Assembly (NCBI RefSeq): GCF_963921235.1
Contig: NC_086108.1
Coordinates: forward strand, 8,308,001 to 8,372,000
Reading direction: 5' to 3'
DNA from: Mobula hypostoma
Taxonomy: Eukaryota
DNA length: 64,000 nucleotides
Part shown: positions 12,384-63,742 of the stretch, piece by piece
Numbering within the stretch: position 1 is the first letter of the stretch
How the letters are laid out: every line of letters begins with the position of its first letter
Program-made: the position numbers and the translations under genes
The notes under the pieces: generated by a model
The model's input: only the letters and a program-made list of their open reading frames with translations
Database searches by the model: none
Told to the model about the DNA's origin: nothing

Positions 12384-12998
12384 CGAGGGGTGATAAGTTC
12401 GTGGCCTAAGGTAGAAGTAGTCAATTTTATAAAACCTAGTACATTTATTTTTCCTACATTTACACACTTAGCCCAGTGGTCGTGGAGCATACAGATCCCT
12501 TCTTTCTAGAAGTCGGCGTCTTCGACCACCAGAAGTGGTTCACAGCAGGGGTGATTGATAAGTTCGTGGCCTAAGGTAGAGGGAGATGAGTTATTAACTT
12601 CAAACTTTCTTCATTTTCACTCAAACTTGAACTGCACGTGCAGGTAACGAGAGCTGTATAACTCATCTCCTTCTACCTTAGGCCACGAACATATCAATCA
12701 CCCCTGCTGTGGACCACCTGGAGGTCCAAGACGCTCTTGTTACATGCACATGCAGTTCGACTCTGAGTGATAATACAGAAAGTTTAAAGTTATTAACTCA
12801 TCTTCTTCTACCTTAGGCCACGAACTTATCAATCACCCCTGCTGTGAACCACTTCTACAAAGAAGGGATCCGTATGCTCCACGACCACTGGACTAAGTGT
12901 GTACATGTAGGAGGGGACTATGTTGAAAAATAGATGTGCTTGGTTTTCTAAAATTTACTCCTCCTAGCTTAGGCCACGAACTTATCAATCACCCCTCG
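12384..12998. mobile_element. Tc1/mariner-type MITE with TA TSD and internal TIR copies
   Basis: TA|CGAGGGGTGAT..AAGTTCGTGGCCTAAG ... CTTAGGCCACGAACTTATCAATCACCCCTCG|TA, inserted into the tail of a LINE (..caacata|tgtcagtgat..). Confidence 0.9.
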
Positions 12999-13032
12999 TA
13001 TGTCAGTGATATTAAACCTGAATTTTTTTTAC

Positions 13033-39210: not shown

Positions 39211-40075
39211 AGGTGAGAGTTGAGTGTCCAGTGGGGACCAAAGGTGAGGGAGCTGCCCTGGATGGGCATGATAAGACCCTTCAGCAGAGGTGCTACCCCT
39301 CCCTGGACACCCCATACACCCCAAATGGAATTCAGTTTTTCCTATTACATGTTGCTTTGTACCGCTGCCACAAAACAACAAATTTCACGACATATGCCAG
39401 TGATATTAAACCTCATTGTGAATCTGCAAGGTGCCCTCAGATATTTTCCCTGCTAAGGGTTCTGCATGGAAGCCAGATTCTGGGATAATGGAGACTTTGG
39501 ATATCAGAATCTAAAGCAACAAGCAATGTGCTGGAGGAATTCATTGGAACCTGCAGCATCGGTGGGATAAAGAAAGGAATTGTCGACTTTTCGGATTAGG
39601 ATGTGAGAGGCATTGAAGAGAGTTGCCTTGCTGCCACTTACACACGAGAGGGGGGAGCTGGGGGGGGACCTCAGGGTTCTCACGTCTAACTGTCATTCAT
39701 TCTTTCGGGCATTCTCCGTTTTCGTGGATGTTTTGCGAAGAAAAAGCATTTCAGGATGTATGTTGTATACATTTCTCTGACACTAAATTGAACCTTTGAA
39801 GTTTGGGACTGATGTCAGCCTTTTCCTTTCACCCTCTGACCAAACATAATGACATTCACCATCACCATGGCGACGCCAGCAGACTGTTTGGATGTCCAAC
39901 ATTCAACCAGAATCAGGTTTAATATCACTGGCATATATCATGAAATTTGTTGTCTTTGCAGCAGCAGTACATTGGAATACATAGTAATAAAATAAATAAA
40001 AGTTACAATATGTATTAAAAATTAAAATTAAGTAGCTTAAAAAGCCAGCAAAAATGCAATAAAAATAGTGAGGTA

Positions 40076-41317
40076 GTGTACAAGGATTTGGAAAGCGGTG
40101 AAATGATCGGACAAAGTCAGCATGGATTTGTGAAAGGAAAATCATGTCTGACGAATCTCATAGAATTTTTTGAGGATGTAACTAGTAGAGTGGATAGGGG
40201 AGAACCAGTGGATGTGGTATATTTGGATTTTCAAAAGGCTTTTGACAAGGTCCCACACAGGAGATTAGTGTGCAAACTTAAAGCACATGGTATTGGGGGT
40301 AAGGTATTGGTGTGGGTGGAGAATTGGTTAGCAGACAGGAAGCAAAGAGTGGGAATAAACGGGACCTTTTCAGAATGGCAGGCGGTGACTAGTGGGGTAC
40401 CGCAAGGCTCAGTGCTGGGACCCCAGTTGTTTACAATATATATTAATGACTTGGATGAGGGAATTAAATGCAGCATCTCCAAGTTTGCGGATGACACGAA
40501 GCTGGGTGGCAGTGTTAGCAGTGAGGAGGATGCTAAGAGGATGCAGGGTGACTTGGATAGGTTGGGTGAGTGGGCAAACTCATGGCAGATGCAATTTAAT
40601 GTGGATAAATGTGAAGTTATCCACTTTGGTGGCAAAAATAGGAAAACAGATTATTATCTGAATGGTGGCCGATTAGGAAAAGGGGAGGTGCAACGAGACC
40701 TGGGTGTCATTATACACCAGTCATTGAAAGTGGGCATGCAGGTACAGCAGGCGGTGAAAAAGGCGAACGGTATGCTGGCATTTATAGCGAGAGGATTCGA
40801 GTACAGGAGCAGGGAGGTACTACTGCAGTTGTACAAGGCCTTGGTGAGACCACACCTGGAGTATTGTGTGCAGTTTTGGTCCCCTAATCTGAGGAAAGAC
40901 ATCCTTGCCATAGAGGGAGTACAAAGAAGGTTCACCAGATTGATTCCTGGGATGGCAGGTCTTTCATATGAAGAAAGACTGGATGAACTGGGCTTGTACT
41001 CGTTGGAATTTAGAAGATTGAGGGGGGATCTGATTGAAACGTATAAGATCCTAAAGGGATTGGACAGGCTAGATGCGGGAAGATTGTTCCCGATGTTGGG
41101 GAGGTCTAGAACGAGGGGTCACAGTTTGAGGATAGAGGGGAAGCCTTTTAGGACCGAGGTTAGGAAAAACTTCTTCACACAGAGAGTGGTGAATCTGTGG
41201 AATTCTCTGCCACAGCAAACTGTTGAGGCCAGTTCATTAGCTATGTTTAAAAGGAAGTTAGATATGGCCCTTGTGGCTACAGGGGTCACGGGGTATGGAG
41301 GGAAGGCTGGGTTCTGA
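40076..41317 (+). CDS. CR1 LINE ORF2 reverse-transcriptase and C-terminal region, uninterrupted 413 aa (5'-truncated insertion, element to about 41408)
   Basis: QHGFVKGKSCLTNL, YLDFQKAFDKV, SGVPQGSVLGP, KFADDTK, TRGHS..FFTQRVVNLWNSLP. The 3' hairpin GGTGCAGG..CCTGCACC and TTCTATGT tail follow. It is nested in a Rex-type 3' end. Confidence 0.95.
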   Translation: MYKDLESGEMIGQSQHGFVKGKSCLTNLIEFFEDVTSRVDRGEPVDVVYLDFQKAFDKVPHRRLVCKLKAHGIGGKVLVWVENWLADRKQRVGINGTFSEWQAVTSGVPQGSVLGPQLFTIYINDLDEGIKCSISKFADDTKLGGSVSSEEDAKRMQGDLDRLGEWANSWQMQFNVDKCEVIHFGGKNRKTDYYLNGGRLGKGEVQRDLGVIIHQSLKVGMQVQQAVKKANGMLAFIARGFEYRSREVLLQLYKALVRPHLEYCVQFWSPNLRKDILAIEGVQRRFTRLIPGMAGLSYEERLDELGLYSLEFRRLRGDLIETYKILKGLDRLDAGRLFPMLGRSRTRGHSLRIEGKPFRTEVRKNFFTQRVVNLWNSLPQQTVEASSLAMFKRKLDMALVATGVTGYGGKAGF

Positions 41318-42744: not shown

Positions 42745-43040
42745 CACCTCCAAGAGGACCACAACCTTGTCGTAGGAGTTGGAGGCTTATGTACCTCAAT
42801 GATCCGGAGTTGGCTAGAGTCAGGGCTTTTGGCTCTTGACAGGGTCACCCATGTCAAACAGGTCAAAGGGTAGAGGCCAGAGAAAGAGTGGTCCACCAGT
42901 CCTCCAGGTTCAGGGGCACAGCTCAGCGTCAACAACCCTGACTGGTCAAACAAAATTGTTACAGAAACAGCAATGAAGAATCCTTCTGTATCTGTGTGTG
43001 ACGGTGTGGACCGGCAGAGATGAAGCACCTTCATTGCTGC
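42745..43040 (+). mobile_element. RTE/Expander-like non-autonomous element; second copy at 56730-57140 (-)
   Basis: ccttgtcgt..cctcaatga..gggtcacccatg.caaacaggtcaaagggtagagg resembles Expander/Rex3 5'UTRs. The 56.7-kb copy ends in an RTE-like ..ggaggaccttcgctgctgcc..(AGTA)n tail. Confidence 0.6.
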
Positions 43041-43044
43041 ACAC

Positions 43045-44955
43045 ATGAAATGCCAGAGGAACTCAGCAGGCCGGGCAGCATCTAGGAAAAGAGTACAGTC
43101 AACAATTCAGGCCAGCAGGACTGGAGAAAAAAAGGCTGGGGAGTAGATTTAAAAGGTGGGGGGGAGGGGAGAGAGACACACCAGGTGATAGGTGAAACCA
43201 GGAGGGGGAGAGGATGAAGTAAAGAGCTGGGAAGTAAATTGGCGAAAGAGTCAGAGGCCATGGAAGAAAGAAAAAGGGGGAAGAGCACCAGAGGGAGGTG
43301 CAGGGTGGGCATGGAGATAAGGTGAGAGAGGGAAAAGGTGAAGGGGGGGTGGGGATGGAGGTGGGGGGGCGTTACCGAAAGTTTGAGAAGTCAATGTTCA
43401 TACCATCAGGCTGGAGGCTACCCAGACAGAATATAAGCTGTTGTTCCTCCAACCTAAGTGTGGCCTCATCATGACAGTGGAGGAGGCCATGGATGGAGAT
43501 ATCGGAATGGGAATGGGAAGTGGAATTAAAATGGATGGTCACTGGGAGATCCCGCTCTTTCTGACAGACAGAACATAGGTGCTCGGTGAAGCAGTCTCCC
43601 AATCTATGTAGGGTCTCACCATACAGGAGGCCACACCAGGAAGACCGGACACAGTATCGGTGTCCGGTCTCAACGGACTCACAGGTGAAGTATCACCTCA
43701 CCTGGAAGGACTGTTTAGGGCCCTGAATGGTAGTGAGGGAGGAGGTGTAGGGACAGGTGTACCACTTGTTCCGCTTGCAAGGGTAAGTGCCAGGAGGGAG
43801 GTCAGTGGGGAAGGACGAATGGACAAGGGAGTCACAAAGGGAGCGATCCCTGTGGAAAACAGAAAGTGGGGGGGAAGGAAAGATGTGCTTGGTGGTGGGA
43901 TCCCATTGGAGGTGACAGACACGGAGGCTGGTGGGGTGGGAGGTGAGGACAAGAGGAACCCTATCCCTAGTAGGGTGGTGGGAGGATGGGGTAAGAGCAG
44001 ACATGCGTGAAATGGGAGAGATGTGGTTGAGAGCAGCATTGTTGGTGGAGGAAGGTCAGCCCTTTCTTTGAAAAAGGAGGACATCTCCTTCGTTCTAGAA
44101 TGAAACGCCTCACCCTGAGAGCAGATGCAGTGAAGAGGGAGGAGTTAAGAGAAGGGGATGGGTTGTTTTTACAAGTGACAGGATGGGAGGAGGTATAGTC
44201 CAGGTAGCTGTGAGAGTCCGTGGGTTTACAATAGACATCAGTAGATAAGCTGTCTCCAGAGACAGAGACAGTGAGATTGAGAAAGGGGAGGGAGGTGTCG
44301 GAAATGGACCAGGTGAATTTAAGGGCAGGGTGGATGTTGGAGGCAAAGTGGATGAAGTTGACGCGTTCAGCATGGTTGCAGGAAGCCGAACCAATGCAGT
44401 TGTTGATGTAGTGTAGGAAAGGTGCGGAACAGTCACCAGTGTAGGCTTGGAACATAGACTATTCTGCGTAGCCAACAAACAGGCAGGCAGAAATGGGACC
44501 CTTGCGAGTGCCCATGGCTACCCCTTTTGTTTGAAGGAAGTGGGAGTAGCCAAAGGAGACATTACAGAGAGTGAGGACCAGTTCTGCAAGACGGAGGAGA
44601 GTGGTGGTGGAGGGGAACTGGTCGGGTCTGGTGTCCAGAAAGGAACGGAGAGCTTTGAGTCCTTCCTGGTGGGGGATGGAGGTGTACAGGGACTGGACAT
44701 CCATAGTAAAAATAAGATGATGGGGACCAGGGAACCTGAAATCATTGGAAAGATCTAGAGCATGTGAAGTGTCATGGTTGTAGATAAGAAGGGACTGGAC
44801 TAGGGGGATAAAATAGAGTCCAGGTATGCCGAAGGGTTTTGGCCCGAAACCTCAACTGTGCTCTTTTCCTAAATGCTGCCTGACTTGCTGAGTTCCTCCA
44901 GCATTTTGTGTGTGTTGCTCAGATTTCCAGCATCTGCAGATTTTCTCTTGTTTGC
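43045..44955 (-). mobile_element. Penelope-like retroelement (RT, Zn-knuckle linker, GIY-YIG remnant), decayed, with an inverted pLTR at its 5' end
   Basis: DVQSLYTSIPH..QTKGVAMG (44459-44704); YINN in place of YIDD and LPFLNL..YCKPTDSHSYL; CKRNKWYTCP; EH..PVTIHFN..EQQLIF.LGSLQPDGMN. An opposite-orientation pLTR copy lies at about 44830-44955. Confidence 0.92.
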
Positions 44956-45400
44956 GAATGGACCTTCTTTGCTGCCCTAATCTCGAGCGGCAATACGGAC
45001 AGTAAAGTAAAAAAAAGAGATCCGCTATCTCACCAGGAATCTCCTGTCACAACTCTGCCTGAGCCTGCAGGTCCCACGCAGACCCTCAGCCCAGAAGAAA
45101 ATAATGGTCACTGCTTGGATGAACTTCTCAGAAGGCTACAAAATGGAATGCCAGAATCTTACCAGGATGCTGTCTTTTCTTCTCTTCCCCACTCTGGGCT
45201 CTTACCTGTTCTGCTCTCCTGCCTATTATCTTCCCCGGTGACCCTTCTCCTTCCCTTTCTCCCATGGTCCGCCCTCCTCTCCTATCAGATTCCTCCTTCT
45301 CCAGCCTTTAACCTTTCCCACCCACCTGAATTCACCTATCAGCTAGTCGCTCTTCTCCTCCTCCCTCCTTCTTACTTTGGCCCCCTTCCCACTTCCTTTC

Positions 45401-45438: not shown

Positions 45439-46850
45439 TTTATTCATTTCCACAGCCTTTGCCTGACCTGCTGAGTCTCTCCAGCACTTTGTGTGTGTCG
45501 ATCTGGATTAGACAGCATGCCTTACGAGATAAGTTGAGCGAGCCAGAGGTTTTCTCTTTGGAGAGAGGAGGTGACTTGATAGATTTGGATAAGATTATAA
45601 AAGGCATAGATAGAGTGGACAGCCAGTACCTGTTCCTTAGGAGGCAATGCCCAACGTCAGAGAACATCCACTTAAGGCAGTTGGAGGAAGGCAGAGGGGA
45701 AATTTCAGAGAGAGGTTCATCAAAGAGTGGTAGGTGTATGGAGCACATCGCCTCGGGTGGCAGTAGAGGCAGATACATTAGGGACATTAAAGAGACTCTT
45801 AGATTGGCATAGGGATGAAAGAAAAGTTGAGGTCTTTTGGGAGAGAAGAGTTAAATTGATCTTGGAGTAGGTTAAAAGGTCAGCACAACATACTGGGATT
45901 GAAAGGCTTGTTATATGGGGAGCATTTGGTGGCTCTGGGCCTGTACTCAGAAGAATGGTGGGGAGGGAGGGAGGGAAATGTCAATGAAACCTATTGAATA
46001 TTGAAAGCCCTGGATAGAGTGGATGTGGAGTGAATGTTTCCTTTGGTGGGGGGAGTCCAAGACAAGAGGACATGGCCTCCGGATAGAAGGGCGTCCTTTT
46101 AGAACGAAGATGAGGAGGGGTTTCTTCAGCCAGAGAGTGGTGAACCTGTAGAATGCAGTGCCACACGTGAACACAGAAAAGAACAAGCAACAAAACAACA
46201 ACAGCAAAACAAGCCCCAATCCCCACCCTCCCACACACATACACTACCCTCTAATCCCATAACGGAGATGGCAGAGTTCACAACTTTCTGCAGCTTTTTC
46301 TGATCCTGTGTATTCCCGCTCCCCCAAGATCAGACAGTGATACAATCAGTTAGAATACTCAATGTGACATCTGCAGGAATTTGCCACCGTACCCACTCCA
46401 GCAGGCCACAGCCGGCTCCAGTGACCATGAGAGTGCACCACGTTGTTCCTGCTCCCCTCACAGTGCTGATAAGGGGTTAACGTACACAGGGGCAGAGTTT
46501 GCTCAGCCCTCGGAGGGCATGGGGTGGAATACCCAGAATCAGGCTCCATCCAGATGGGCTGGAGCTCGCATCCCACCAAAAGACCCTGAAAGCAGGAATA
46601 GTCTCAAACAACGCATTTCATTGTATGCTTCAATGTCCCTGTACCTGTGATAAGTAAGTTTGACCGAATCCGATTCGAATCTGTCTCCAGAACACACACT
46701 GGTTTCAAACCGTCACTAACGAGATTTGCCTTGCCTATAAAATGACCAAGGATTAACATACTAATCCAACCCACTAAATTAAACCAATGACTAACATGCT
46801 AACTAACCTACTGGTTAATTGACTAATCTATCGATGACTAAAATGCCAAC

Positions 46851-47090
46851 ACGAGGAAATCTGCAGATGCTGGAATTTCAAGCAACACATATAAAAGTTG
46901 CTGATGAACGCAGCAGGCCAGGCAGCATCCCTAGGAAGAGGCACAGTCGACGTTTTGGGCTGAGACCCTTTGTCAGGACTAACTGAAAGATTCAGTTAGT
47001 CCTGACGAAGGGTCTCAGCCCGAAACGTCGACTGTACCTCTTCCTAGAGATGCTGCCTGGCCTGCTGCGTTCACCAGCAACTTTTATATG
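46851..47090. mobile_element. PLE pLTR-derived palindromic insertion with a 17-bp flanking duplication
   Basis: 100-bp arms at 46888-46987 and 46991-47090, with a 3-nt loop and 5 mismatches. ATGACTAAAATGCCAAC at 46834-46850 and 47088-47104. Confidence 0.9.
46998..47033 (+). ncRNA. Minimal type I hammerhead ribozyme motif (PLE type), intact core
   Basis: AGTC-CTGACGA-AGGGtctcagCCC-GAAA-CG-TC-GACT: stem I AGTC/GACT, CUGANGA and GAAA boxes, palindromic ACGT helix III, GUC site. Confidence 0.75.
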
Positions 47091-47329
47091 ACTAAAATGC
47101 CAACTACTCTACAGTCTATGCAACAGACAAACCCAGCAAATACCTAGCTGATAATTAACTGACAGACTAATCTACCAATCAATTTACTGATCAAGATACC
47201 AGCAAATAAACTAGCAACTAACCCACAGAGCAGCTACTGAATAAACTACCCTCTAGCCAATTGATTTCCTACAGACTCCTTAAAACCTTCGACATTGAAC
47301 CACTTCAAACTCCCACCCTTCCCTGTGTC

Positions 47330-48450
47330 TATAAACACATCCAGCCCCTAAATCCCTCAATGTCTCTGTAACCCCTCCCTTCCCAGCACCCCTCCCTGTC
47401 TCAGTCCATCCCCTACAACCCTCCATGTCTCTGTAACCCCACTACGCCCCTCTCTGTCCCTGTAACACCCTCCCTCTCCTCCTCCCCACCCTCTCTCTGT
47501 AACCCCCTTCCTCCCGGTCTGTGTTAACCACGCCCTCTCCTAAAGCCCTCCCAGTCCCTGTAACCCCCTGCGGATCCTCTACCATTCACTGTCTCAGTAA
47601 CTCCCTCCCTCACCTGCACCCCTCCCTCTCTCTGGAACCCCCTCCCACCCATCCAGCCCTCTCCATGTCTGTAACAGCCTCCCTCTCCTACACCTCTACC
47701 TATATCTGTAACCCTCTCCCTTCCCTATACCGCTCCATCTCTGTGAAAAACCGTCCCTATACCCCTCCCTTTCTCTGTAACGTCCCCTCCCCTTGTCTCT
47801 GTGACCTCCTCTCTCCTCTACACTGCTCTGTCTTTGTAACCCCCTTCTTCCCCAAAACCCCTGTCTGTCTCTGCAAAACCCCTTTCTCCCCAAAACCCCT
47901 CTCTGTCTCTGTAAACCCCCTCCCACCACTACACCCCTCCAGGTCTCTGTAACCCTCCCCTCCCTCCCCTACTCCCCTTCTGGTCTTTGTTACAGCCTCC
48001 CTGCCCTACACCCCTCTATCTCGGTAACCTCAATCCATCTCTTACATCCCTCCCTCCCTCCCTCTGTAAACCCCTTCCTCCCCTAAATGCCTACCTGTCT
48101 CAGGAATTCTTCCCTCACCAGCAACCCCCCCCAGTCTCAATAACTCCCTCCCTCCCCTACTCCACTCTCTGTGTCTGTAACCCCTCCCCTACACACCTCC
48201 CTGCCTGTGCAAATTCTTCCCTCCCCTACTCCCCTCCCTCCCCTAAACCCCCCCATCTCTGTAACCCCCTCCCTTCCCCACTCCTCCACGTCCCTGAAAC
48301 CAACTCCCTCCCCTACACCCCTCCCTGTCTCTTAACTGTCTCCCTCCCTGACACCGCTTCCTGTCTCTATAAACCCCTCCCCATCTCTGTAACATCCTCA
48401 AGCCCTTACACCCCTTTCTGCTTCTGTAAACCCTTCCAGTTCCTCCAGCT
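47330..48450. repeat. Degenerate pyrimidine-rich minisatellite (CTCTGTAACCCCTCCC-like)
   Basis: Recurrent TCTCTGTAAC followed by C-runs over about 1.1 kb; the minus strand is G-rich. Confidence 0.8.
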
Positions 48451-50024: not shown

Positions 50025-53000
50025 TAGAGATAGAAAATGCATGCCAAAAGGGCAATGTTACAATAGTTATGGAGGACTTCAATATGCAGGTATATTGGGA
50101 AAATTAGATTGGTGCTGGATTCCAAGAGGGGGAATTTCTAGAGTGTGTGCAAGATGGCTTTTTTAGAGCAGCTCGTGATAAAGCCCACTAGGGGATCAGT
50201 TATTCTGGATTGGGTGTTGTGCAATGAAACAAAATTGATTAGAGAGCTTTAGGTAAAAGAACTCTCAGGGGCAAGTGATCATAGTGTGATCAAATTCACC
50301 CTGAAGTTTGAGGAGAAGCTAAAGTCAGATGTATCAGTATTACAGTGGAGTAAAGGGAATTACAGAGGCATGAGAGAGGAGTTTAGTCAGAATTGATTGG
50401 AAAAGAACACTGGCAGGGATGATGGCAGAGCAGCCGTGGCTGGAATTTCTGGAAGCAACTTGGAAGGCACAGGGTATATGTATCCCAAAGAGGAAGAAGT
50501 ATTTTAAAGGCAAGATGCCACAACTGACACAACTTTTGTTAGATGGCTAACAAAAGAAGTCAAAGCCAACATAAAAGCCAAAGCAACACACATCAAAGTT
50601 GCTGGTGAATGCAGCAGGCCAGGCAGCATCTGTAGGAAGAGGTGCAGTTGATGTTTCAGGTCAAGACCCTTCGTCAAGACTAACTGAAGGAAGACTGAGT
50701 AAGGGATTTGAAAGTTGGAGGGGGAGGGGGAGATCCAAAATGATAGGAGAAGACAGGAGGGGGAGGGATAGAGCCGAGAGCTGGACAGGTGATAGGCAAA
50801 AGGGGATACGAGAGGATCATGGGACAGGAGCTCCGGGAAGAAAGACAAGGGGGGGGGGACCCAGAGGATGGGCAAGAGGTATATTCAGAGGGACAGAGGG
50901 AGAAAAAGGAGAGTGAGAGAAAGAATGTGTGCATAAAAATAAGTAACAGGTGGGGTACGAGGGGGAGGTGGGGCCTTAACGGAAGTTAGAGAAGTCGATG
51001 TTCATGCCATCAGGTTGGAGGCAGACGGAATATAAAGTAATAGAACAAAGATTAGTGGAAAGTTAGAAGATCAGGAAGCTTTTAAAAACCAACAGAAGGT
51101 AACTAAAAAGTAACTGAGAAGGTAAAGGTGGAATATGAAAGTAAGCTAGCCAATAATATTAAAGAGGATACCAAATGTTTCCTCAGATACATAAAGTGTA
51201 AAAGAGAGTCAAGAGTGAATATTGGACCACTGGAAAATGATGCTGGAGAGGTAGTAATGAAGGACAAGGAAATGGTGGATAACCTGAATAAGTATTTTGC
51301 AGAGACTAGCAGTATGGCAGAAGTTCCAGATGTCACGGGGCATGAAGTGTGTGAAGTTACCATAATGACAGAGAAGGATCTTGGGAAACTGAAAGGTCTG
51401 AAGGTAGATAAGTCACCTGGATCAGATAGTGTTAACCATAGGTTTCAGAAAGAGGTGGGAGGCGTTAGTAACAATCTTTAAAGAATCACTAGATTCTGGA
51501 ATGGTTCTTGAAGACTGGAAAATTGCATATGTCACTCCACTTTTCAAGAAGGGAGAGAGGCAGGAGAAAGGAAATTATAGGTCAAAGAGGCTGACTTGAG
51601 TGTTTGGGAAGATGTTGGATTTGATTATTAAGGATGAGGTCTCAGTGTACTTAGAGGTGCATGACAAAATGGGCCACAGTCAGCATGGTCAGGGGTAAAT
51701 CTTGCCTAACAAATCTGTTGGAATTCTTTGAAGAAATAATAGGCAGGATTGACAAATGATTTGTCAATGATTTGGATGATGGAATTGATGGCTTTGATGC
51801 AAAGTTTGCAGATGATTATGAAGATAGGTGGAGGAGCAGGTAGATTTGTGGAAACAAAGACTACAGAAGGACTTAGACAGTTTAGGAGAATTGGCGAAGA
51901 AATGAGAGATGGAATACAGAGTTGGGAAATGTTTGGTCATGCACTTTGGTAGAAGAAATGAAAAAGTTGACTATTCTCTAAATGGAGAGAAAATACAAAA
52001 AAATGGAGGCACAAAGGGTCTTGGGAGTCCTTGTGCAGGATCCCCTAAAAGTTAATTTGCAGGTTGAGACCATGGTGAGGAAGGCAAGAGCAATGTCAGA
52101 AACAGAATCAACTTTATTATCACTGGCATGTGATGTGAAATTTGTTAGCTTAGCAGCAGCACTTTAAAGCAATACATAATCTAGCAGAGAGAGAAAAAAA
52201 AATAATAAAGTAAAACATAATAATAAATAAACAAGTAAATCAATTATGTATATTGAATGGAGTTTTTTAAATGTGCAAAAACAGAAATACTGTATATTAA
52301 AAAAAGTGAGGTAGTGTCCAAAGCTTCAATGTCCATTTAGGATTTGGATGTCAGAGGGGAAGAAGCTGTTCCTGAATCGCTGAGTGTGTGCCTTCAGGCT
52401 TCTGTATCTCCTACCTGATGGTAACAGTGAGAAAAGGGCATGCCCTGGGTGCTGGAAGTCCTTAATAATGGACGCTGCCTTTCTGAGACACCGCTCTCTA
52501 AAGATGTCCTGGGTGCTTTGTAGGCTAGTGCCCAAGATGGAGCCAACTAAATTTACAACCTTCTGCAGCTCCTTTCGGTCCTGTGAAGTAGCCCCTCCAT
52601 ACCAGACAGTGATGCAGCCTGTCAGAGTGCTTTCCACGGTACAACTATAGAAGTTTTTGAGTGTATTTGTTGACATGCCAAATCTCTTCAAACTCCTAAT
52701 AAAGTCTTGCCTTCTTTATAACTACATCAATATGTTGGGATCAGGTTAGATCCTCAGAGATCTTGACACCCAGGAACTTGAAGCTGCTCACTCTCTCCAC
52801 TTCCAATCCCTCTATGAGGATTGGTATGTGTTCCTTTGTTTTACCCTTCCTGAAGTCCACAATCAGCTCTTTCGTCTTACTGACATTGAGTGCCAGGTTG
52901 TTGCTGCGACACCATTCCACTAGTTGGCATATCTCACTCCTATACTCCCTCTCGTCACCACTTGAGATTCTACCAACGATGGTTGTATCGTCAGCAAATT

Positions 53001-60560: not shown

Positions 60561-63104
60561 TTTAACCTACTAACAGGTATGTCTTTGAACTGTGGGAGGA
60601 AACCAGGGCACCCAGCGAAACACGATTCCCCCCCCACCTTAGCAGTGTGACCACATGCCCACCACTCCCTGTGTAAATAACATCCTCCCCTATACTTCCC
60701 TCCAATCACCTTAAAATTAAGCCTGCTTGTATTAGATATTTCCACCCTGGGAAGAGATCTCTGGCTTTCCACTCGATCTATGCCTCTTATCATCTTGTGC
60801 ATCTCTATCAAGTCACCCCTCATCATCCACTCCAAAGAGGAAAGCCCCTCCACTTGGAGCGGAGTTGTGTGCGGAGTGTGCACGTACTTCCCGTGATCAT
60901 GTACGTTTCCTCCAGGCAGCCTGCTCTCTGTCCACAGCCCAGAGGAGTGTGCCTGTTGGCTCTCTAGCCACTAGGAATTGCCCCCTCGTCCCCCTGGGTA
61001 TGCGCAGTGACCTTGTCTGGGAGAACTTAGTGACAATACAGAAAGAATATAATGATGCTGGAGTAAATCTTGTCACTGGAATTCAGAAGAATGGGAGGTG
61101 ACCTCATTGAAACCTATCAAACGTTGAAAGGCCTCAACAGAGTGGATGCGGAGAGGATGTTTCCTATGGTGGGGGATTCTGAGACCAGAGGACATAGCCT
61201 CAAAATAGGGAGTTGTCCTTTTAGAGCAGAGATAAAGAGGAATTTCTTTAGACAGAAAGTGGTGAATCTGTGGAATTCATTGCCACAGGCAGCTGTTGAG
61301 GCTGTCACTGGGTGTATTTAAGGCAGAGGCTGATAGATTCTTGATTGGTCAGGGCATGAAGGGATACGGGGAGAAGGCAGGAGATTGGGGCTGAGAGAGA
61401 AATGGATCAGTCATGATGGAATGGTGCAGCAGACCTGATGGGCCAAATGGCCTCACTCTGCTCCTATATTTTACGTTCTTGAAGGGGCTTTCAATGGGCA
61501 GCACAGCCTAGATGGGCCAAAGGGCCTATTTACATGCTAGTATGTCTCTGTGGCGGTGTATGGGGTGTCCAGGGAGGGGCAGCATCTCTGCTGAAGGGTT
61601 TATTGTGTCCATTCCAGGCTGCTCACTCACATTTGGTCCCCACGGACACTCTGCTCTCTCCTGTAGCTCCAAGTAACTGTCCTCACGCGACAGCGGCCAC
61701 TCCCCAGTACACCGCTTCGACAGGTGGGCTAAACCAGGTGACAGTAGCCAGCAGCCCCAAACCCTGGAGAGATAACCTAATCACAGTACAATTTACAATG
61801 ACCAGTTAACCTACTAACCGGCACATCTTTAAAATTCACATGCTTGTCCTAGCACGTGAAGTCAGCTCTGGCGGACTGGGTGGTTGAGACCTACAGTGTG
61901 ATCCAACGGCAAGGAAGTGGGTATTACAATGCTCTGTGGAGAGCAAAGAGCATGACGAGGCACAGACGACGTCACGGTCATCCACTGCAACCAGGGAAGA
62001 CCCCAGTTTGTGACGCTTGTTCGTACCACTGGACCCGGACTTCCGAGGTCAAGAGAGTGGAACTGCCCAGTGCAGTGGCTTTTCCATTTTAAAAGACTCT
62101 CCTACACGGGTCTCCTGTCATCGTTGGGCCACTTTGTCTCTCTGGGTCATAGACTCCAAAGCACAACCTGAAAGATTGTGCTGGTCCATTTCAGAGGGTG
62201 TATAAGTGCCAGCAACACTCTTGGGGCTGGAGTCACATCCAGAGTCATCGTCGGAATAATGCAGTGTGAAAACAGGCTGTTCGGTCCATCCAATCCATAC
62301 ACACTAAGACACAAATCTGAGCTCGTCCTGTTCACCCACATTTGGTCCGTAGCCCTGGGTAGAGTGGACATGGAATTAAATCTAGATTTTAAAAGTCTTA
62401 ACAGTAGTGAATAAACTGCCGAAACACATCTGTTTTTGTTTACTGGCATTCTTCGGGGCAGTAAGCCTGCAATACTCATTCAGTCTGGGCTGTGTGCGAC
62501 TCCCAGGTCATTTGTGAGGCTTGAGTTGTGGCTGCTGTCCCTACCTGGAGTGTTCAGAGCAATTGATGGTTCTGGGCCTGTACTCACAGGAGATTAGGGG
62601 GATCTCACTGAAACCCATAAAAACATCAAGAGGTCTATTTCAAGGGACGTGGAGAGGGTGCTTCCTACAGTGGAGGAATCTAGGACCAGAGGGCACAGCC
62701 TCTGAATAGAAGGATATCCCTTTAGACCAGAGATGAGGTGGAATTTCTTTAGCCAAGGAGTGTGGAATTTATTGCCACAGGTGGAGGCCTGTCATTGGGT
62801 ATGTTCAAAGCGGAGGTTGATAGGTTCTTGATTACTCAGGGTGCCAAAGGTGTATGGGGAGAAGGCAGGAGAATGGTGCTGAGAGGGATAATAAATCAGC
62901 TGTGATGGAATGGTAGAGCAGACCTGAAGGGCTGAATAGCCTCATTCTGCTCCTGTGTCCTGTGGTCCCTCTAAATCTTTCCTACCCGTGTACCTGTACG
63001 TGTCTGGCAGCTCGTTCCCTGATGGATGACGCGTGGGTGAACGCTCACAGGTGATAGGTAAGACCAGGTGAGGCGGGGGGGGGGGGATGGTGGGTGGGTG
63101 ATGG

Positions 63105-63422
63105 AGGCTTCACCTATCACCTATCAGCTTGTACTCCTTCCCCTCCCCCTCCCTTCCTATTCCGGCTTCTTCCCGCTTCCTTTCCAGTCCTGATGAAGGG
63201 TCTCGGCCCGAAACGTTGACTGTTTATTCCTCTCCAGAGATGCTGCCTGACCTGCTGAGTTCCTCCAGCATTTTGTGTGTGTTGCTCTGGATTTCCAGCA
63301 TCTGTAGAATCTCTCATCTCTATAACAACACACGCTAAGCACTGGGAGAACTCAGCAGGTCAGGCAGCATTGATGGAAAAGAATAAACAATGAATTTTTC
63401 AGGCCGAGACCCTTCTCCCAGA
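63105..63422. mobile_element. Two opposed PLE pLTR fragments
   Basis: Plus-strand pLTR at 63105-63320, then a minus-strand pLTR at 63323-63422 flanked by CTCTCATCTCTA (63311-63322 and 63423-63434). Confidence 0.75.
63185..63222 (+). ncRNA. Minimal type I hammerhead ribozyme motif (PLE type), intact core
   Basis: CAGTC-CTGATGA-AGGGtctcggCCC-GAAA-CG-TT-GACTG: 5-bp stem I, both core boxes, GUU site. Confidence 0.75.
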
Positions 63423-63742
63423 CTCTCATCTCTAGCTCAGTGTCCTAACTGTGATCATCATAGCTGTGCTGTGGCCTCAGACTTGCCTTCGTAGTGGACG
63501 TGGTTTCCTTTTGTAGTGATACCAGTGGTTTTGGGAGGTCTCCCAGTGCGCCCCTTGAACTTCCAGACACAAAGCAAGGCGGATCCATGGGCTGCCATTA
63601 CAGAATTAGTTCGACATGGAACAGTAATTGGGCAAGGAGAGATATTTGGGTCCCCGCAGACTGAGGGCTGATGTCATAGCCCAGTAACTTACTAGCCTGA
63701 CAAGGAAAGACTCGGATTTTCAATGAATTACCAGTCAAGGAG

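Follow-up and report, generated by a model that had tools for sequence, protein, structure and literature searches.

A near-symmetric, one-tailed head-to-head Penelope-like element insertion in Mobula hypostoma, likely formed by two-ended priming

Introduction

Insertions of EN+ Penelope-like elements (PLEs) are known to contain inverted pieces of their own termini. In Adineta vaga, Pen2a_Av has an inverted pLTR, a 31-bp tail on one side and a target-site duplication (TSD) around the whole unit, and antisense self-priming was proposed for rotifer PLEs in 2013 (PMC3846280, in the sections drawn on here). A tail of 30–40 bp at one end is described as typical of PLE insertions in the excerpted text of PMC8557442. 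The purified protein of Poseidon PAc, a PLE of Anolis carolinensis, cuts and extends both strands, is predicted to be a dimer and begins synthesis at two internal positions delimiting the tail (PMC11167929, in part). Minimal hammerhead ribozymes (min-HHRs) did not cleave as monomers in the portion of PMC4209133 considered here, which also reports opposite-strand hammerhead pairs 100–700 bp apart in metazoan PLEs. Non-LTR retrozymes consist of direct repeats in tandem and contain at least two intact hammerheads (bioRxiv 10.64898/2026.07.22.740005, in excerpt). The original prediction for the locus studied here had named inverted pLTR pieces and minimal hammerheads as known features of PLEs, and both are indeed published in the parts seen of PMC3846280, PMC8557442 and PMC4209133.

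Here we describe a hammerhead-bearing hairpin insert in a 64-kb window, by which we mean the whole stretch of M. hypostoma DNA that was analysed. We put a probability of roughly 0.7 on the reading that it is one PLE insertion, composed of two 5'-truncated terminal-repeat copies arranged head to head, with one TSD and one tail, for which two-ended priming is the likely origin. The locus has the features of a 5'-truncated EN+ PLE unit, namely a head-to-head inverted 5'-truncated copy, a tail of 30–40 nt at one end and a single TSD with an empty site elsewhere, as in the units described in the sections used of PMC3846280 and PMC8557442. It differs from those units in having no ORF or direct pLTR pair and in that both copies are cut to ~100–140 nt and form an almost perfect hairpin. 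The TSD of 17 bp compares with 8–10 bp in the rotifer examples, and the junction between the copies is blunt, whereas Pen2a_Av-type units of rotifers have a 15-bp overlap (PMC3846280, in part).

Resemblance to Poseidon PAc, as far as it is described in the excerpts of PMC11167929, lies in two 3' ends ~30–40 nt apart, a hammerhead just upstream and an arrangement consistent with both target strands being extended. The family and host are different, however, and the nicks inferred here lack ATT. The hammerhead shares with the min-HHRs of PMC4209133 (in part) the absence of loop 3, an extra base between positions 9 and 10.1, G10.1-C11.1, a palindromic 15.2-16.2 and a helix I of 4–5 bp; in contrast to the pairs in that paper, the motif starts are ~20 nt apart, one motif is broken and neither has a partner on its own strand within the unit. 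The insert is, like the non-LTR retrozymes, non-coding, PLE-derived and equipped with a type-I hammerhead (bioRxiv 10.64898/2026.07.22.740005, in part), but a retrozyme was rejected as its identity because it is one inverted pair with one intact motif and not a set of tandem direct repeats. An autonomous full-length PLE was ruled out as well, since the 237-bp insert has no RT-EN frame between direct pLTRs.

A miniature inverted-repeat element (MITE) has terminal inverted repeats that start at a short TSD on both sides. This assignment was rejected given the 37 unpaired bases between the left TSD and the arm and the TSD length of 17 bp.

Results

Structure of the insert

Inverted-repeat alignment bore out the predicted architecture of two 100-nt arms (46888–46987 and 46991–47090) that are 95 % complementary around a 3-nt spacer, AGA, and differ at five positions, all of them transitions and none an indel (Table 1). 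The predicted extent did not hold. While the 203-bp palindrome is real, the insert is asymmetric and larger, at 237 bp (46851–47087), and 37 unpaired element bases (46851–46887) form a one-sided tail that separates the left 17-mer from the left arm. Similarly, the arms had been said to consist solely of PLE terminal sequence; this is correct for 97 bp of each, which is the unambiguous element sequence, but not for bases 47088–47090, which are both the 3' end of the right arm and the first 3 nt of the right 17-mer. Pairing of these TSD-shared bases depends on T46890, a position at which C accounts for 92–99 % of contig depth in the four runs. The insert lacks an open reading frame of 150 aa and codes for no protein.

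Table 1. Coordinates of the insert at 46834–47104, its component features and the neighbouring head-to-head unit
Feature	Position in window	Strand	Basis
Left TSD copy, 17 bp	46834–46850	+	Single copy at the organism C empty site; last 3 nt, AAC, also the family distal end
PLE 'tail', 37 nt unpaired, left copy only	46851–46887	−	Aligns with 3' ends of window copies 44827–44955 and 63186–63315
Left arm, 5'-truncated PLE terminal repeat	46888–46987	−	Inverted-repeat alignment; paralog comparison
Mirror copy of the hammerhead, A in place of G8 and G12 (46971, 46956), activity predicted lost	46944–46981	−	Missed by motif scan; core invariance
3-nt loop, left-copy bases	46988–46990	−	Family sequence upstream of TTCAGTT
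Right arm, PLE terminal repeat, 5'-truncated and without a tail	46991–47087	+	Family runs on past 47087 (loose ends at 47084 and 47087)
Minimal type-I hammerhead motif, predicted cut after 47029	46997–47034	+	Motif scan; descriptor features of PMC4209133 (in part)
Right TSD copy, 17 bp	47088–47104	+	Contigs of A and B cross the right junction
Older separate insertion of the same architecture	43018–44975		Alignment, Pfam, GIY-YIG clusters

The two copies meet head to head at their truncated 5' ends, and the centre junction (46990/46991) is blunt, with no letters shared or added. The left copy continues for another three bases to supply the loop, and runs X9 and X10, by their loose ends at 46991, give TCT as the family sequence just upstream of TTCAGTT.

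Two of the five arm mismatches (46971 and 46956) are of CpG type and fall, as had been noticed from the sequence, on G8 and G12 of the minus-strand hammerhead core. The closest paralog in the window (50581–50691) matches the right arm at 5/5 mismatch sites, and on this comparison the left arm is the bearer of the derived letter at all five. This one-sidedness is non-significant (p=0.0625 if symmetric), and selection on the intact arm is unsupported, with 5/5 changes on one arm at that p value and the three non-CpG mismatches fitting a flank divergence of 1.3–2.4 % (P 0.11–0.35). Both arms share one letter, A47017/T46961, where 9/9 further copies in the window read G. Run X2 contigs gave a count of zero for A>G at this position (47017), so the A may not be rare in the young subfamily.

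ADAR disfavours a 5' G neighbour. Editing by ADAR as the source of two A>G arm differences was dropped, as one of them has a 5' G neighbour and the other arm is without matching changes.

Target site and junctions in contigs

The original prediction had the palindrome inserted with a 17-bp duplication. The 17-mer occurs exactly twice in the whole 64-kb window, immediately flanking the insert on its two sides, and the copies are identical (17/17). The chance of such a match at one given place is 4.6e-10 under the flank composition, and its alignment score was equalled by 2 of 2,977 random pairs of 46-nt windows, the TSD search windows having been picked by eye.

Contigs of 4 of the 24 listed sequencing runs, which represent organisms A and B (X2 and X5), C (X9) and D (X10) and include none taken for an RNA run, were aligned to 46400–47300 at 85 % likeness; those of organism D were without useful coverage of the site. 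The listing named no RNA dataset as containing the sequence, a result that carries no information about expression. The suggestion to look for an empty site in relatives was answered by organism C, in which one 458-nt contig (X9) joins 46755–46850 to 47105–47300. This contig has 96 and 196 letters on its two sides and contains a single 17-mer; 5 extra letters separate 46850 from 47105. Organisms A and B each have contigs that cross the left junction (to 46870) and others that cross the right one (from 47062), and these contigs extend just 20 and 26 letters into the element, where the bar for bridging was 31 letters. Data for organism B come from a different study than those for A, and run X2 may be the assembly's own sample. 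The short reach of the junction contigs is what unitigs breaking at a high-copy repeat would do, and none of the contigs listed for the four runs spans the centre. Because the outer junctions recur in a second organism and a third has an empty site with one 17-mer, we regard this as a true insertion. Substitutions in the flanks (9/710 for A versus B and 11/452 for A versus C) indicate that the insertion is young and likely older than the A–B split.

Three-nucleotide matches between target and element occur at both ends (AAC on the left and ATG on the right) and are weakly compatible with priming at both; PAc, in contrast, started without homology (PMC11167929, in part). In the left flank, 46586–46647 has raised depth (~10^3–10^4) and is the end of another repeat family. 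A degenerate C/T-rich tandem array with a period of ~37 nt occupies 47300–48450, 200 bp to the right of the insertion.

Hammerhead motifs and predicted folding

The motif scan recovered the intact plus-strand hammerhead core that had been predicted in the right arm (46997–47034) and one other intact minimal hammerhead in the window, at 63185, which makes two in all. The type-I motif of the right arm comprises a 5-bp stem I, CUGACGA, one extra A, a 4-bp stem II and GAAA-C-GUC, and has the core of a min-HHR (CUGANGA / GAAA / UH, helices I and II, no loop 3 and an extra base before helix II). Rfam at its gathering threshold, below which minimal hammerheads score, gave no matches in the 64-kb window. 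The left-arm motif on the minus strand was not recovered by the scan, as it fails at G8 and G12, and is predicted to be inactive from the known invariance of the core.

The RNA fold of 46834–47104 has a free energy of −196.4 kcal/mol (z −25.1) and none of 200 shuffles was as good, compared with z −0.4 for the right arm alone. Imposing the hammerhead fold is penalized by 67 kcal/mol over the full insert, by 64 when the transcript ends at 47040 and by 4.6 for an isolated right arm. A read-through RNA is therefore modelled as forming a rod of ~100 bp that would block the hammerhead, and the ribozyme is predicted to be silent here; folding thus agrees with the earlier proposal that a transcript would sequester it. 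Self-cleavage of a min-HHR takes place as a dimer or with protein assistance, and there is no same-strand hammerhead partner inside the unit for dimer folding. The hammerhead motif is a passenger of the terminal repeat.

The element family in contigs and across the window

Contig depth over the insert is 10^5–10^7, as against ~5–54 on the unique flanks. Heterogeneous loose ends pile up at 46848 (462 records in X2 and 354 in X5) and mark the distal 3' end of the family, while others, at 47084 and 47087, mark a second 3' end beyond which the family continues past 47087. The family has two 3' ends ~30–40 nt apart.

Joints in related contigs numbered 283. The 15 of these that were listed all run from the left arm or tail (46868–46929) to the right arm (46996–47052) and have 15 different breakpoint pairs; intervening letters are possible in 11 of the 15, and the short sides measure 19–35 letters. 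We read the listed joints as probable further head-to-head loci. Entry into the right arm lies at 46996–47002, the outer edge of the hammerhead, in 10 of the 15 listed joints, a clustering that may in part mark the point where an older subfamily stops matching. One joint, 46875 to 47000, is found in all four runs at ~1–3 times flank depth and is either a shared older locus or a recurrent breakpoint. A C variant at 46893 makes up 27–33 % of depth in organisms A and B and falls to 0.1 % in the other two, C and D; a subfamily expansion restricted to the A–B lineage is suggested by this difference.

Within the window there are 15 PLE pieces, forming three adjacent head-to-head pairs (one weak) and one tail-to-tail pair. 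The latter (63186–63424) involves a separate insertion with its own 12-bp duplication (63311–63322 and 63423–63434), and its two independent members are alike at 77 % versus 95 % for the arms of the hairpin. The stretch 63048–63434 contains a PLE copy on the plus strand whose minimal hammerhead at 63185 (triplet GUU) looks intact; 5' of this copy is a weak inverted piece (63048–63101), and a second PLE copy is inserted at the tail of the plus-strand one. No TSD was found for the pieces at 50581–51035 and 63040–63320 (scores of 7 and 5).

Further copies of the central junction had been proposed as a check, and within the 64-kb window both the centre junction and the 17-mer are confined to one locus. 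A metagenome scan for the centre with a loop of 0–25 nt returned eight loci, 8/8 being unrelated short hairpins without further likeness to the element, and a viral-contig scan with a 31-nt arm motif gave no matches. Elsewhere in the window, a 0.6-kb element (12385–13000) that has inverted repeats at its ends and others nested inside (arms of 124 nt, 90 %) has the look of a DNA-transposon derivative. A stop-free frame of 432 aa on the plus strand (40019–41317) reads like what we take to be the RT end of a CR1/L2-type LINE.

A neighbouring head-to-head unit

Two kilobases from the hairpin insert lies a second one-tailed unit with arms of 1.8 kb and 0.13 kb. Its tail-less minus copy (~1.8 kb) has broken RT and GIY-YIG-like frames, and its tailed plus copy (~0.13 kb) begins within the hammerhead core. 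The unit is enclosed by a decayed 19–20-bp duplication (43022–43040 and 44956–44975), the score of which, 13, was reached by 10 of 2,977 random pairs. One RT frame gave RVT_1 at E=0.0037, below the Pfam cut-off, and the neighbour frames fell in GIY-YIG clusters at 0.92–0.93. Pfam returned no families for the second RT frame or for either of the two frames of the endonuclease region, and a PDB search with the neighbour frames gave no matches. The hairpin arms are 71–82 % identical to the end of the 43018–44830 copy over 56–98 nt, from which we have moderate confidence that they derive from the terminal repeat of a PLE with an RT and, at the C terminus, a GIY-YIG domain, as judged by sequence likeness.

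Discussion

We regard the locus as very likely to be an ordinary Penelope-like insertion. The original prediction had offered a minimal PLE integration product as one of two possibilities, and this is supported by the TSD together with the empty site, the one-sided tail, the head-to-head orientation and the sibling unit 2 kb away. Weighing against this account are the presence of all five arm differences on one arm (p=0.0625), the 5 extra letters at the empty site in organism C, the reach of the junction contigs, which at 20 and 26 letters is under the 31-letter bar, and a neighbouring unit whose RT falls below the Pfam cut-off and which has no Pfam GIY-YIG.

A route in which both ends of the target serve as primers is, in our view, the probable way in which the insert formed. 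The target would be cut with staggered ends leaving 17-nt 3' overhangs, and both target 3' ends would prime reverse transcription on sense RNA, so that a head-to-head pair inside one TSD would arise directly. The left end would prime at the distal start site, keeping the tail, and the right end near the proximal one, without a tail; the two cDNAs would end no more than 3 nt apart just upstream of the hammerhead, and their ends would be joined blunt. We infer this route from the extension of two strands and the two start sites reported for PAc in the excerpts of PMC11167929.

At both ends of the insert the strand joined to the target 3' end is antisense to the element, which fits first-strand cDNA. 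The neighbouring unit (43018–44956) is likewise tailed on one side only, its arms measuring 1.8 versus 0.13 kb, a structure that simple fold-back cannot yield, and the 15 listed of 283 joints, with their 15 different breakpoint pairs, also favour two-ended priming. In L1 twin priming the second target end primes on the RNA to give an inversion within one TSD, and the pair of segments comes from neighbouring stretches of a single RNA. The insert resembles its products in second-end priming on RNA and in having one TSD, but here both arms copy the same segment. Against the two-ended route stand the coincidence that two cDNAs stopped within 3 nt of each other, which fold-back gets free, and inferred nick sites without the ATT preference reported for the anole element.

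The same PLE insertion could have acquired its second arm by fold-back, as the original prediction envisaged during priming. Either the first cDNA would have doubled back at its 3' end to copy itself, or self-priming would have occurred on an antisense template, and the product would have joined the right target end via the 3-nt ATG match. This explains the near-perfect symmetry and 3-nt loop more easily, and the A47017/T46961 letter, common to both arms where 9/9 other copies have G, points to one template or to later homogenization; self-priming from palindromes at inverted junctions is argued for in the part of PMC3846280 used here. A single shared source RNA accounts equally well for that letter, however, which in the light of run X2 may not be rare in the young subfamily, and fold-back leaves unexplained why the right arm ends near the proximal end of the family. 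With neither primer pairing nor letters in common at the junction, and with sibling units whose arms are very unequal, fold-back is less likely than two-ended priming, and we consider it possible but unlikely. Another source of two arms would be a pair of independent PLE insertions at one site, or else a subsequent rearrangement or conversion that left the two copies symmetric, and the tail-to-tail pair in the window did form by a separate insertion that carries a 12-bp duplication of its own. The hairpin, by contrast, has a single TSD around both arms, no duplication at its centre and arms that are 95 % alike versus 77 % for the independent pair. T46890, a minority family letter, pairs with a base of the TSD and so makes the palindrome better, but may be a source variant, since non-C letters make up 7–8 % of depth in A and B versus ~1 % in C and D. 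We judge such an origin to be highly improbable.

The other possibility raised in the original prediction, that the palindrome is a small mobile ambisense hammerhead or hairpin unit, here one moved in trans by PLE proteins, found no support. It would account for a true TSD around the palindrome, terminal repeats alone are reportedly enough for mobilization in trans (PMC3846280, in part), and the 46875-to-47000 joint recurs in all four runs at ~1–3 times flank depth. A mobile unit would nevertheless have to be reconciled with 15/15 listed junctions (of 283) that are mutually different, a centre and 17-mer found at one locus only in the window, a broken minus core, a plus core predicted by folding to be locked in the rod, a one-sided tail that is the signature of primary integration and an arrangement other than the tandem direct array of retrozymes; its likelihood is therefore very small. 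That the centre is an assembly artefact, either a collapsed longer inverted repeat or a fold-back chimera, is similarly far-fetched. No listed contig crosses the centre and inverted PLE structures trouble assemblies according to the excerpts of PMC8557442, but the five transitions between the arms, two at CpG and with no indels, look like decay in the genome, and inward-pointing outer junctions are present in two organisms with an empty site in a third.

Returning to two-ended priming, we lean slightly towards the more specific view that the locus is a clean fossil of target-primed reverse transcription from both ends by a PLE dimer, with one start site per end, which would yield head-to-head one-tailed units without antisense self-priming. 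We did not find a two-ended model with one start site each for PLEs in the literature searched. The structure itself is already published for PLE insertions, and what is new here is a near-smallest, near-symmetric example.

The locus itself is an ordinary dead insertion. If transcribed, it would be a compact source of dsRNA against a very abundant repeat. As a test case, it offers an empty site in a relative, an exact TSD and two readable ends, and fits a simple two-ended route. Two-ended priming addresses the long-unexplained inverted, one-tailed structure of PLEs and, if the model is true, a high-copy family such as this makes the one-tail rule countable.
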